From positions 79,980,001 through 80,044,000 of the forward strand of contig OZ024746.1 of NCBI GenBank assembly GCA_964016885.1: DNA of 64,000 nucleotides. The letters are read 5' to 3'. Positions 3,899-63,895 of this stretch are shown here, piece by piece. The notes under the pieces were generated by a model. It was not told where the DNA came from. It searched no databases and saw only the letters and a program-made list of their open reading frames with translations. The position numbers were made by a program, and so were the translations under genes. This stretch comes from Eledone cirrhosa (lineage: Eukaryota). Numbering within the stretch: the stretch's first letter is position 1; the number at the start of each line of letters is the position of its first letter.

Positions 3899-4095
3899 AG
3901 TTTATCCCGGGTTCAATCGGGGGTAACCACAGTAAGTAAGGTACTCAATACAAAGCAGAGTATAAATATTTTATATAGAAAAGGCTTCTACAGGACTCGA
4001 ACTATTTCATTCGGGAGAAATCATCAGGAACCGCATGATGATTTCTCCCGAATGAAACAGTTCTAGTCCTGTAGAAGCCTTTTCTATATTAAATA
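3899..4095 (-). mobile_element. PLE terminal-repeat remnant: 54-bp inverted arms plus one-sided tail in (TA)n
   Basis: Arms 3973-4026 / 4036-4089; CTGATGA...GAAA motif at the centre; tail contains ACTC...TTGAGTAC. Confidence 0.7.
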
Positions 4096-4146
4096 TATAT
4101 ATATATATATATATATATATATATATATATATATATATATATATAA

Positions 4147-4410
4147 TATATATTAACAAATGGAAACTATATTTATAAAACCATATTTATTTCATTATAC
4201 ATATTTCAAGGACACCAAAGCAAATTATGGTGCGCTTTCATGTCCTTGGTGTTCTTGAAATATGTATAATGAAATAAATATGGTTTTATAATTATAGTTT
4301 CCATTTGTTAATATATTGTATTTTTACTCCAAAAATTTGTTGAGTGCTTTATATCAGTTATAAAAATATTTGCTTGTTGTATCCCAACAAATTAAATATA
4401 ACTTCTACAT
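4147..4410 (+). mobile_element. Hairpin-plus-tail element in (TA)n, same family as 38156-38412
   Basis: ~70-bp inverted arms; tail 4317-4410 matches the reverse complement of 38156-38245. Confidence 0.75.
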
Positions 4411-4452
4411 ATATATATATATATATATATATATATATATATATATATATAT

Positions 4453-4560
4453 ATAGGAACGAGTAGGACCCAGACGGCTGAGCTCAAGCCGTTTCGACGG
4501 CTATTTCTGGACGTCGAAACGGCTTGAGCTCTGCCGTCGGGGTCATACTTTTTCCTATAT
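4453..4560. mobile_element. Inverted pair of PLE terminal-repeat fragments carrying the 3' half of a hammerhead (GAAAC-stem III-GTC)
   Basis: GAAACGGC-TTGAGCTCT-GCCGTC-GGGG on +, mirrored on -; both arms stop at TTCCTAT then (TA)n. Confidence 0.7.
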
Positions 4561-4969
4561 ATATATATATATATATATAAGCGTTAACCTAATACTAACA
4601 CTGTACTGCACTCTTCGTTATTGTTTTTTTGTTTTTTTTAACACATATATATATATATATATATATATATAAAGAGGGGTGTGCTCATACGTGGAGATGC
4701 TATAAAATAGCTTATAAAACAGGGTGAAAACGGAAGAAGTTAATGCCATCGGCCTCTATATGAATGAGATTTTACTAGTTGAAATAAGTAAGACTATTAT
4801 TTACGTTACTGTTACTACCCTATATTTAAGTACACTATAGATATAGATCTTATTAATAAGATATTATTTACACAACGACTAAGCTTAACCGTTCTGGCTC
4901 ACTCATCGGGTAAAGAATCCTCATATTATATATATATATATATATATATATATATATATATATATATAT

Positions 4970-5060
4970 AACGAAGGAAATGTTATAAGGAACCAGGTGG
5001 ACCATAACGCACCAAAGTACTCAATACTTAGGGTAGTAGAGTGGGTAATAGGAACGAGTA
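4970..5060 (-). mobile_element. Tail segment of the same PLE-derived family (also 15130-15237, 62394-62500)
   Basis: AAGGAACCAGGTGGACCATAACGCACCAAAGTACTCAATACTTAGGG recurs at 15148 and, more diverged, at 62414. Confidence 0.75.
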
Positions 5061-5074
5061 TATGTGTGTGTGTT

Positions 5075-5470
5075 GGTTATAGAATGTTTACTGGGGTTGT
5101 CTTTGTGTCACCCCAACTAGAAGATCTTGTGTAAGTGAAAGAAGCACTCAACGTCGATTGTATCTTTCCAAATTGTTGTGGTATATCATTGGCTTTACAC
5201 GACGGTGTATATGTACATTAATAATAAAATACAATGGCTAGATTTCCATAATTCCTTTTATTATGTAATTACCCAGAATACGTATTTCTGTGGTGTCACT
5301 GTCACATCATGATACCATAACGCGATTACTGACACAACGTCTTCAGACAACCTCTTAGGTATAATATTTATTATGTAATCCAATTCTAATATGGAGACAG
5401 ACATGACGTAATGATAACACAAAAATGTATATTATGGCCAATCACGTAATAAAAGGAATTATGGAAATCT
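5075..5470 (-). mobile_element. Older hairpin-plus-tail element
   Basis: Diverged inverted arms 5239-5312 / 5402-5470 (AGATTTCCATAATTCCTTTTATTA); tail has TTGAGTGC on -. Confidence 0.55.
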
Positions 5471-5629
5471 GATTTATTACTACTATGTGTGTGTGTGTGT
5501 GTGTGTGTCTGTGTGTGTGTGTGTGTGTGTGTGTGTGTGTGTGTGTGTGTGTGTGTGTGTGTGTGTGTGTGTGTGTGTGTGTGTGTGTGTGTGTGTGTGT
5601 GCACGTGTGTTTGTAGACCGATAAACACA

Positions 5630-60485: not shown

Positions 60486-60503
60486 TTCAACACTGACACA
60501 GGA

Positions 60504-60546
60504 ACGATGTACTAGTTTCAAGCTTGTTAGCTATCATCAGCACCGT
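60504..60546 (-). ncRNA. Minimal hammerhead ribozyme candidate (inverted copy)
   Basis: Reverse complement of 60971-61013. Confidence 0.7.
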
Positions 60547-60970
60547 ACACCCATCTGCCAGATAGTTGAACGTTCGAAAGTATATACTTTCCTTATGAAA
60601 ATTAACGGCTGAGCAGCCTAATTTGCATATTGAGTGAGTTAAATCGGTCAGGCATACCGAAAACGATAGGTTGAAATAAAATGAAAACGAAATTTCATTT
60701 CTCACTCTTAGTATGGCACTTACTTAAATGTAAGTATGTATGTATACGTACATACATATATGTATACAGACGTACAGTAGCATGCATATATATATATATA
60801 TATATATATATATATATATATATATATATATATATATATACATACAGGTATCGTTTTCGGTATGCCTGACCGATTTAACTCACTCAATATGCAAATTAGG
60901 CTGCTCAGCCGTTAATTTTCATAAGGAAAGTATATACTTTCGAACGTTCAACTATCTGGCAGATGGGTAT

Positions 60971-61013
60971 ACGGTGCTGATGATAGCTAACAAGCTTGAA
61001 ACTAGTACATCGT
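60971..61013 (+). ncRNA. Minimal type I hammerhead ribozyme candidate
   Basis: ACGGTG-CTGATGA-T-AGCT-AACA-AGCT-T-GAAA-CTAG-T-A-CATCGT; 6-bp stem I, palindromic ACTAGT. Confidence 0.72.
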
Positions 61014-61399
61014 TCCTGTGTCAGTGTTGAACAAAAAGGTGACGTGGTTACCTTAACACCGTATGGCATAAATTCAGGCTGTTCAGTTTGTTTACAAACG
61101 AACAAAGCGGCGTTATAATAAGCGTCCGCTAAACTGATGCGTGCATATATGTATGTGTACCTGTATGTATATATATATATATATATATATATATATATAT
61201 ATATATATATGCATGCTACTGTACGTCTGTATACATATATGTATGTACGTATACATACATACTTACATATATATATTTAAATATATATATATGTGTGTGT
61301 GTGTGCGTGCGTGTGTGTGTGTATGTGTGTGCGTGTGTGTGTGTGTGTGTTAAACGAAACATTCCATACTGTCTAACTACAAACATGTGTACCCTGGTT

Positions 61400-62110
61400 G
61401 ACGATGTAAGTATAAGTGAAGAGAAAGACTTCCAGAAATACAAAATGTTATAGAATGTGCAGTACCAATTTGTATAGAGTAACTTCGAGTAAAACAAGCA
61501 AGAACAAAAGACCGAGATATAGTACCATTTGTAGTTACACACAATCCATATCATCAAAATACTTTCAAAGTTGCTACATCAAATATATCGATAATCAAAC
61601 AAAGTAATAAACTAAAAGATGTAATTACTGATAGAAAGAGTATTCAAAGCAAACGACAACCAAATAGTTACAAGCGATTCTAAACAAATCTAAACAACAG
61701 CAATAAAATCTTCACAGAATCTAAGTGTCAATGCAGTCGTTGTTCTACATATCAATTCATACATGTTGGCATTTATATCAACATAAAGGCCGGGCGGATG
61801 ATATATGTGAGTAAAAATATAAACTGTACATGCAGAAATCTGATTTACTCTATCAAATGCCCGAATTGCGAAGAAATATTCATTGGTCAGAAAGTATGCG
61901 ATTGTACCATCACCGGATTAATTGTTTCTACATTTGGCACAAGGCCAGTAATTACCCAGTGCATTACTGGTACTTTATTTTATCGACAGATTAATGACGC
62001 TAAATTTAGATAGATCCCTTTATGTGGTCATTTGAAAATAGGCTGCAATAAAAATTATTCCCATTTTTGAAAATTTCATGACTTAAATGATGTACAAAAA
62101 ATGGTAAAAG
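61400..62110 (+). pseudogene. Penelope-like (Neptune-type) ORF fossil: RT-EN linker and GIY-YIG endonuclease
   Basis: IVPFVVTHNP, IQSKRQPNSYK, NINCTCRNLIYSIKCPNCEEIFIGQ, QINDAKFR*IPLCGHL; stops and frameshifts. Confidence 0.82.
61918..61986 (-). mobile_element. 5'-truncated SINE inserted into the PLE fossil
   Basis: SINE 3' end only; GATTAAT repeated on both sides. Confidence 0.85.
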
Positions 62111-62393
62111 AAAAGAATTATATATATATATATATATATACATATATATATATATATAAATATATATATATATATATATATATATATATATATATATATA
62201 TATATATATATATATATATATATATATATATACATATATATATATTTAAATATATATATATATATATATATATATATATATATATATATATATATATATA
62301 CATATATATATATAAATATATATATTATATATATATATATATATATATATATATATATATATATATATATATATATATATATATATATATATA

Positions 62394-62502
62394 AAAGAAG
62401 GTGTAGTCAGATACCAGGTGAACCATAACGCACCAGAGTACTCGATATTTAGTACTCGAAACGGCTGGATCTCAGCCGTCGGGGTCCTGACTCTTTTCCT
62501 TG
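62394..62502. mobile_element. PLE-derived tail (-) fused to a hammerhead 3' half (+)
   Basis: GAAACGGCT-GGATCTC-AGCCGTC-GGGG...CTTTTCCT; same family as 4453-4560. Confidence 0.7.
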
Positions 62503-62817
62503 TATATATATAAACCTTTGTTTGTACTGCCTCTCTGTTTTTGTTCCCGTTCAAATTTTCACTATATATATATATATATATATATATATATATATATATA
62601 TATATATATATATATATATATATATATATATATATATATATATATATATATATATATATATATAAAGGAACCAAATAAATATATATATTTTTTTTTAATA
62701 AGACTCCAGTTGCATTTTCGATTTCATCTTTTTTTCTTTATACTTTAACTCGTGTAGGACACCTCGGTTATTTTTCATTTTGTAAAAAAACCTCACTTTC
62801 TAATATATAATTATATA

Positions 62818-63895
62818 TATATATCATAAAACATGTCTATAGAATCACCACATAAAATATATACCGTTTCCTCTCCCAATTAGCATAATTAACCATATAA
62901 AAAATCAATTAGACCAAGCTATAAGAATAAAAGCTTCTATGAAGAAATCTCCGACAAATAACCGAAAGCAGCCTCTTCGCGGCGGTTACCACGGAGTATT
63001 TATCGAATATTTCGACAGCATGTATAAATCGACCAGATATACAGTCAACTAAACAGAATTAGGTGTAAAATAAACTAGGAGAAAAGTGTACATATTTAAT
63101 TACCTCTACCATGGTTTCGTCCACATTTTAAGACATCCGATAACATGGGATATCTAGAGCTTCGGATTCTTCAAGAGTTAGCTCAAATTTAGACAATTAA
63201 TTTTCCAAAGTGATCGCGCCAAGAATACATTAAAAAATGGCTAAGAATCGTGACGTGGCAGCGGTCAAGTTAGAAAGGATGTGATTAGTTGCTTACGGCT
63301 GGTAGGCTTTTTGCTAGAAAGCGCAGCCCAATACAGCCAAATTGTATCTCAACCTAACGGGAGATTATTACATATAAAGGTTTACATATATATATATATA
63401 TAAAGTCATAGATATATGTGTCTTGCAACGGGTCACGTTGTGGCTCAATGAAGAATTAATAAATTAAATAATCAGAGCTATATATCATAAAACATGTCTA
63501 TAGAATCACCAGATAAAATATATACCGTTTCCTCTCCCAATTAGTATAATTAACCATATAAAAAATCAATTAGACCAAGCTATAAGAATAAAGGCTTCTA
63601 TGAAGAAATCTCCGACAAATAACCGAAAGCAGCCCCTTCGCGGCGGTTACGACGGAGTATTTATCGAATATTTCGACAGCATATATAAATCGACCAGATA
63701 TACAGTCAACTAAACAGAATTAGGTGTAAAATAAGCTAGAAGAAATGCGTACATATTTAATTACCTCTACCATGGTTTCGTCCGCATTTTAAGACATCCG
63801 ATAACATGGGATATCTAGAGCTTCGGATTCTTCAGGAAGTTAGCTCAAATTTAGACAATTAATTTTCCAAAGTGATCACGCCAAGAATACATTCA
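62818..63895 (-). mobile_element. Partial tandem of PLE terminal repeats (~410-bp direct repeat, 661-bp offset)
   Basis: 62821-63231 versus 63482-63893; TA runs at junctions; hammerhead in each copy. Confidence 0.8.
63763..63840 (-). ncRNA. Hammerhead ribozyme candidate with extended stem II (mutated twin at 63102-63178)
   Basis: ACTTC-CTGAAGA-A-TCCG..AGATATCC..GGATGTCT..CGGA-C-GAAA-CCATGG-T-A-GAGGT. Confidence 0.65.

Follow-up and report, generated by a model that had tools for sequence, protein, structure and literature searches.

We analysed a 64,000-nucleotide stretch of the Eledone cirrhosa genome (GenBank assembly GCA_964016885.1, contig OZ024746.1, positions 79,980,001 to 80,044,000, forward strand), referred to here as the window; window positions below count from its first letter. 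The host genome measures 3.0 Gb and is rich in TA microsatellite. An initial annotation of the window had drawn attention to eight short hairpins with a shared RCTC...TTGAGY stem, placed just past the arm end points of Penelope-like elements (PLEs). All eight strings are present at the positions and on the strands reported, but they represent six independent families (A, B, C, D, E and H; these letters, and F, F5 and G below, are labels of the present analysis) rather than eight, since family A accounts for sites 5017 and 15177 and family C for 4326 and 38218. On the strand with the hammerhead half (GAAAC..GTC), a typical site lies in an insertion made up of (TA)n, an inverted 5'-truncated arm, a sense arm, the arm end, a tail and (TA)n. 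We call the hairpin next to the arm end copy 1 and the insertion end just before it site 1; copy 2 and site 2 are the counterparts at the far end of the tail.

Each hairpin comprises RCTC, the 5' half of an inner stem (P2), a loop, the 3' half of P2, a 2-nt bulge and GAGY, often followed by RCT. The family B hairpin (3943–3961, minus strand; ACTC-TGC..GTA-TT-GAGT) lies just beyond inverted arms at ~3970–4090, with a TA run near 3899 ending the tail; family B is tied to a Hydra-type open reading frame (ORF), and pattern recognition places a predicted minimal hammerhead core of its pseudo-long terminal repeat (pLTR) upstream of site 1 (3994–4027, minus strand; CTGATGA..GAAA..GTC). Family C occurs at 4326–4345 (plus strand; P2 CAAA/TTTG, inverted arms ~4154–4318, tail end ~4408) and at 38220–38239 (minus strand; bulge TC, arms 38239–38418, tail end ~38155). 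The family A hairpin is found at 5019–5042 (minus strand; P2 TACT/AGTA, tail end ~4971), and that of a family A subfamily at 15179–15202 (minus strand; inverted arm of 12 bp, tail end ~15131). At 15572–15591 (plus strand, tail end ~15624) lies the family H hairpin, whose P2 has a mismatch in this copy, and at 37921–37989 (plus strand; arms 37807–37916, tail end ~38084) that of family D, with P2 CAAG/CTTG and an insert of ~50 nt. A segmental duplication repeats sites 37921 and 38218 at 45958–46026 (family D, plus strand) and 46239–46258 (family C, minus strand).

The remaining site differs in setting. No inverted arm adjoins the family E hairpin (63443–63478, minus strand; GCTC/GAGC, P2 TGA/TCA, site 1 at ~63485), which had been listed with the hairpins past an arm end; it sits in a direct tandem, a non-autonomous ~661-bp head-to-tail unit (62818–63893, minus strand) that carries a hammerhead-like core at ~63825 and both hairpins, and whose downstream unit ends at site 1 (~62824). 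Its copy 2 (63347–63364, minus strand; TCTC-CC-GTTA-GG-TT-GAGA), ~12 nt beyond the usual tail end (~63377), had been missed, as had a hairpin of another tail family at 63952–63973 (minus strand; GCTC-TCTG..CAGA-TC-GAGC-ACT) with a TA run 41 nt downstream. The window also contains a tailless family A palindrome (4455–4556), a rare insertion with both ends at site 1 and no hairpin inside, and the 3' half of a family A-type hairpin (62438–62450, minus strand) within a rearranged fragment (62395–62510). A 31-position covariance model, with window families in its training set, matched nine window sites, all in tail-like context, and missed 15177, 37921 and 45958.

The stem that had been proposed stands as far as RCTC/GAGY is concerned, but its TT or TC is a 2-nt bulge and no fixed part of it. 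Across this bulge, on the 3' side, P2 stacks on RCTC/GAGY in each family. To keep the structure test free of circularity, we relied for detection solely on RCTC and the nearest GAGY after it, which selected 78 of the 190 tailed insertions from all loci (17 clusters). In this set the first three P2 positions were paired in 41 of 48 cells at a 2-nt bulge, against 21/51, 11/51, 13/45, 13/36 and 12/33 (22–41%) at bulges of 0, 1, 3, 4 and 5 nt, respectively, and 5,000 partner permutations gave a mean of 25.5 and a maximum of 35 paired cells. The outer pair is A-T in nine clusters and G-C in six, which bears out the compensatory change reported earlier. RNAalifold returned the same fold for 22 instances, in which the outer pair and two P2 pairs show changes on both sides; this set was hand-picked, is biased toward structure and contains a few misregistered rows. 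Even core pairs covary, because a retrozyme-like 528-bp tandem hammerhead unit (L250:2600-3940, on G000:C3) has GTTC/GAAC and TCTC/GAGC hairpins, each just beyond an insertion end. Most family H copies outside the window have the P2 TAC/GTA, in the form TAC-TTCG-GTA with a cUUCGg loop; such loops cap P2 in two families and favour RNA as the folding strand, a point noticed after the fact. The comparison of sequences thus supports a conserved single-strand structure with compensatory changes.

In searches against Rfam, no family reached its gathering score for the hairpin in six loci, and among the matches listed for the whole window (150 of 322) all were to microRNA families, below threshold. 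We rejected a spare hammerhead stem III, since the outer pair changes to G-C, as well as splice-signal and coding explanations, since the motif lies upstream of the ATG and the length of P2 varies freely.

To assess how often the motif accompanies arm ends, we sampled the genome in 99 evenly spaced 10-kb stretches (0.99 Mb) and identified inverted-arm structures without using the motif. This gave 113 non-simple structures: 66 tailed (tail of 20–250 nt), 21 tailless and 26 unclassified. The strict motif begins within 25 nt of the arm end in 22 of the 66 tails, and a relaxed rule raises this to 28. The corresponding count was 1/66 for reverse-complemented tails and averaged 0.05 (maximum 2) over 300 dinucleotide shuffles, and 0.3% of 20,000 random windows contained the motif. 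Its frequency in tails is therefore well above that in shuffled sequence, and the distance from the arm end is nearly fixed, as had been suggested from the window: the offset was 3–10 nt in 27 of the 28 relaxed matches and 19 nt in the other.

We obtained long or full-length elements for families A, C and D by walking upstream. The family A (717 amino acids from the ATG) and C (732 amino acids) proteins are each encoded by a single ORF and combine a reverse transcriptase (RT; YRDD) with a C-terminal GIY-YIG endonuclease (VIY/VVY..YIG/YVG); Pfam gave no relevant match for either. RWK-type, DKT, linker and CxxC..E..N..CxH motifs are among the features given for the Hydra clade of PLEs in the part of Craig et al. 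covered here (PMC8557442, section 11). RW[RK] is present in A, C, D, F, G and F5 and DKT in A, C, D, G, F5 and B, so that B, F, G and F5 each have Hydra-type N-terminal motifs; the CxCx5C linker and CxxC..E..N..CxH are matched in A and C by pattern and in D by eye, and no CCHH motif was seen by eye. Insertion ends abut TA runs, as expected of (TA)n insertion, and predicted CTGAnGA hammerhead cores lie ~65–140 nt upstream of copy 1 in 8 of 20 among the loci listed. By these protein motifs, all seven motif-positive families with an ORF (A, B, C, D, F, F5 and G) classify as Hydra-clade PLEs; no ORF was found for family H and none was linked to family E. The proposal of a conserved element at the PLE 3' end thus holds in that the host elements are PLEs, but in this sample the hairpin is tied to the Hydra clade and is no general PLE feature. 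Its location needs a similar amendment: in insertions it does lie just past the arm end, but in the full-length element it lies in the 5' untranslated region (UTR), between hammerhead and ATG, and does so twice.

Published sequences carry the motif too. Among six Hydra consensi in the supplement of Craig et al. (PMC8557442, File S7), compared by eye, it is clear in Hydra-2_Amil (coral) and Hydra-2_Ajap, appears twice in tandem before the ATG in Hydra-1_Ajap (sea cucumber) and occurs in variant form in Hydra-1_Crog (sea louse), which has a mismatched copy and a GCCC/GGGC copy; matches in Hydra-1_Obim and Hydra-1_Amil were only weak.

An endonuclease fragment at 61684–62010 led us to a Neptune-like family, which we used as a negative control. 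The window holds a broken C-terminal Neptune-like PLE (61352–62118, plus strand; RT thumb and GIY-YIG), ~43% identical to a 775-amino-acid family. The tails of the Neptune-like family (45 nt) and of a second non-Hydra family with a C-terminal endonuclease are both shorter. In each of these tails (3' ends of L033-L060; L252), a hairpin or enclosing stem carries an AC-rich loop and, by eye, resembles the AC-rich stem loop of the Poseidon element PAc. At 12 non-Hydra loci the covariance model gave no match in seven; matches in the other five could be traced to other tail families or a hammerhead ribozyme tandem unit, apart from three of unassigned origin.

Family A has at least 150 N-terminal matches at 94–100% identity, many in open frames of ~780 codons, and has probably been active recently, judging from these copies. 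It also forms head-to-tail arrays of three to four units at ~3.53-kb spacing (for example, G000:C1:437200456-437211468).

In the full-length element of family A, a further hairpin lies 6 nt beyond the far tail end. Having predicted a second copy from family A, we then found one in C, D, F, G, F5, B and E, that is, in all eight families readable that far; the family E copy is TCTC/GAGA. An internal AT run had at first given family F5 the appearance of a short tail lacking the motif; its complete tail has both copies. Tail length equals the spacing between the two hairpins. The distance from the end of copy 2 to the first ATG is 21–25 nt in four of the five coding families and 65 nt in the fifth, A. 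Non-coding tandem derivatives (family E and the 528-bp unit) retain both copies.

Mapped insertion ends in six families fall mainly into two clusters, one around -7/-8 relative to copy 1 and the other 4–12 nt before copy 2, with spacings of 72–172 nt. Two 12-nt windows, 2–13 nt upstream of either copy, contain 371 of 400 ends (four apparent family E ends were dropped, as the element resumes there). The short TAT/ATA at the ends matches the (TA)n target; since the same two windows hold only 33 of the 103 TAT/ATA positions in the mapped regions, target homology is used but does not choose the site. In family F5, only 4 of 61 ends fall at its own internal AT runs. Site spacing correlates with motif spacing (r = 0.997, n = 6), a value that is largely tautological, rests on hand-read positions and is not counted as evidence.

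The two ends of an insertion are not chosen independently. Both ends could be assigned in 92 inverted insertions, and 88 of these combine one site-1 with one site-2 end (27 of 28 for the random sample); independent choice would allow at most half. The two arms are themselves independent copies: among 49 pairs, the site-1 (tailless) arm extends more than 20 nt further 5' in 15, the reverse holds in 3 and the extents agree within 20 nt in 31, and because the difference can run in either direction, neither arm is simply a fold-back of the other. In family A, the 5' extents concentrate between -56 and -78 (18 of the 33 from the random sample), as would be expected if transcripts began there.

Of the two functions suggested earlier for the element, positioning the start of reverse transcription is the better reading. 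We consider it probable (roughly 70%) that the hairpin is a cis element of Hydra-clade PLEs, an RNA docking site that positions internal initiation a few bases upstream of itself. The RT-endonuclease protein, perhaps as a dimer, would bind both hairpins on one RNA. The (TA)n tract would be nicked on both strands, with one nick priming at site 1 and the other at site 2, and the UAU a few bases upstream of each hairpin would anneal to the nicked (TA)n strand through 2–3 nt of homology. Both cDNAs would proceed toward the RNA 5' end and then join head to head, yielding an inverted repeat with a one-sided tail whose length is the distance between the copies. The further step, that the doubled hairpin loads the two halves of an RT-endonuclease dimer on one RNA so that both cut (TA)n strands prime at two programmed internal sites, is one we hold tentatively, as plausible but short of an even bet. 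Under this mechanism the site-2 signal is not copied to the 3' end of the insertion, and therefore long copies would need tandem read-through or a circular template.

Several observations weigh against this interpretation. The role of the hairpin is deduced from its position and from a different clade, that of Poseidon. The motif is absent from the tails of the Neptune-like and the second non-Hydra family (tails being the only parts compared) and is found in 12 of 33 tail clusters, the other 21, most of unknown clade, being without it; given these two families and 21 clusters, PLE tails in general do not require the motif. In family B, copy 2 has no P2 and is a plain GCAC/GTGC hairpin, and in C and G its P2 is weak or imperfect. 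Between families the offset covers 4–12 nt, the ends of family B are spread out, and of the 400 ends, 29 lie outside the two windows, including nine at a TA run inside family E. The end counts include loci fetched by tail-containing queries, and the 66 tailed against 21 tailless structures of the motif-blind sample show a weaker bias than 88/92, some of the tailless calls being artefacts of internal TA runs. Finally, the test of which strand folds gave 7 G-U against 8 A-C, in a noisy set.

RNA processing, the other function that had been suggested, would have the hairpin direct cleavage just upstream by the RNA itself or by a host or element nuclease, with the 3' ends at sites 1 and 2 then entering standard target-primed reverse transcription. 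The hairpin does lie 3' of each end, as expected of a cleavage guide, and in Poseidon, according to the part of PMC11167929 covered here, the ends of RNA sequencing reads coincide with the start sites of reverse transcription, which fits RNA processing too and to that extent counts against the positioning reading. We nevertheless regard cleavage as unlikely: the distance varies between families, the hairpin in six loci corresponds to no Rfam family at gathering score, and PAc starts internally on uncut RNA in vitro in the same account (PMC11167929). Moreover, a cut at site 1 would put the two sites on separate molecules and leave the mixed pairing of 88/92 insertions unexplained.

It is likewise improbable that the hairpin serves to bind its own protein for capture of the RNA in cis or for translational autoregulation, with the nearby ends a by-product set by local UA homology. 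Its conserved CUC/GAG face resembles a protein-recognition site, and the position of copy 2 so close to the ATG in most coding families would suit such a role. Better TA tracts nearby are rarely used, as family F5 illustrates, and non-coding derivatives retain both copies. Such binding is compatible with a hairpin that positions reverse transcription, and the two roles do not exclude one another.

The fold might instead act in single-stranded cDNA or extruded DNA, guiding the GIY-YIG endonuclease so that an intermediate is resolved at sites 1 and 2. The tail has been ascribed to endonuclease-mediated resolution (PMC8557442, in the parts covered), a tail requirement for endonuclease recognition in Drosophila Penelope is cited in the part of PMC11167929 covered, and the folding-strand counts give the idea some room. 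It is nonetheless a quite doubtful alternative, since variable spacing and a covarying P2 call for a single strand, the sense strand invariably has the bulge on its 3' side, the register of the UUCG loop in family H is that of an RNA tetraloop and each arm is an independent copy. A functionless motif, due to chance likeness or shared tail ancestry, can be set aside as most improbable: a short core and the small number of families (six) behind the window examples favour it, but shuffle, slide and permutation controls reject it, P2 covaries between otherwise unalignable families and the motif occurs in other phyla.

Other features of the window are unconnected with the hairpin. Positions 35591–43286 and 43487–51281 form a ~8-kb tandem duplication (92–98% identity) flanking a gap of 200 Ns (43287–43486), which may be real or may be a haplotype assembled twice. 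At 5928–9163 (minus strand), an RT-like ORF (YADD) is represented by two fragments in tandem (513 and 391/286 amino acids; 84% identity), which probably derive from a long interspersed nuclear element. A compact predicted hammerhead core (CTGATGA..CGAAACG) at 15323–15440 (plus strand) belongs to a different tail type without the hairpin, with a related tail at ~4575–4645. At 60430–61130, a hammerhead-bearing element forms inverted copies around a TA run, with cores at 60516 (minus strand) and 60977 (plus strand); it is related to a family with only degenerate hairpin-like sequences. Tandem repeats are present at 11800–12455 (268 bp, 2.4 copies) and 18594–19134 (198 bp, 2.7 copies), the unit of the latter resembling a short interspersed repeat frequent in many loci.

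Earlier publications cover the PLE tail and hammerheads, internal initiation and the Hydra clade. The hairpin is a real, conserved cis element of this known retroelement clade and is apparently undescribed: in agreement with the initial annotation, which knew of no account of it, we found no description of the hairpin or of its doubling in full-text searches of the literature, a scope outside which fall subscription papers, Repbase notes and picture-only supplements. How the internal start is chosen and why a one-sided tail accompanies an inverted copy are posed as open questions in the parts of PMC8557442 and PMC11167929 covered, and a short, covarying, doubled hairpin that predicts both ends makes them testable with a few point mutants, with family A as a system that is likely to be active. 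Given how close PLE RTs are to telomerase RT, the way they recognise RNA is relevant to template choice by telomerase-like RTs. If the doubled hairpin does load a dimer on one RNA in this way, it would amount to a hard-wired twin-priming mechanism that explains both the tail and the inverted repeats of PLEs, and would give a telomerase-related RT a portable 'start here' signal of 20 nt. The motif may also aid annotation of Hydra-clade and non-autonomous elements, which Pfam misses.

The closest experimental parallel is Poseidon PAc (Frangieh et al. 2024, PMC11167929), which, in the parts of that paper covered here, starts reverse transcription in vitro internally at two tail-bounding sites on uncleaved RNA and requires RNA up to +172, 3' of the start at +111-118. 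Shared with our families are a tail that is the stretch between two internal starts, proposed ones in our case, AT-rich targets and an upstream hammerhead; the RNA requirement 3' of the start and the predicted dimer are those of PAc. The differences are that those parts name no conserved motif and place the start inside a loop, in a different clade, whereas in our families each end is followed on its 3' side by a copy of a repeated, covarying hairpin and tails measure 50–170 nt rather than 30–40. By eye, the portion of the published PAc template covered has a UCUC/GAGA stem ~8 nt past the +111-118 start, without an inner bulge, which we note as a lead. With the Hydra clade as portrayed by Craig et al. 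(PMC8557442), our families share protein features, hammerhead and (TA)n targets, and published consensi carry the motif; the sections and supplement parts covered describe the hammerhead, but not the present hairpin or its duplication, and the size of our units (~2.6–3.6 kb) is a further difference. As with minimal PLE hammerheads and non-LTR (non-long terminal repeat) retrozymes (PMC4209133; bioRxiv 10.64898/2026.07.22.740005; each in the parts covered), structured pLTR RNA is retained in non-autonomous tandem units, and stem III of some Hydra hammerheads also reads ACTC/GAGT. Unlike PLE hammerheads, the hairpin lacks a CUGANGA/GAAA core and is located downstream from the cleavage site, and the change of its outer pair to G-C removes the U of an NUH site.

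Beyond PLEs, the hairpin resembles RNAs that recruit RTs (the R2 3' UTR, hepadnavirus epsilon, telomerase RNA and DRT10, compared by description only) in that a folded RNA binds the enzyme and fixes the part that is copied. R2 starts at the RNA 3' end, hepadnavirus epsilon primes on protein within its own bulge, and the boundary stem of telomerase lies 5' of the template and stops the RT. In L1 twin priming, two primers on one RNA give rise to inverted insertions. DRT10 likewise has a boundary stem 5' of the template that stops the RT, in the portion of its description covered (10.1101/2025.10.16.682844). In contrast to these four RNA systems, the element described here is present in duplicate on the 3' side of the start, and its two cDNAs overlap.

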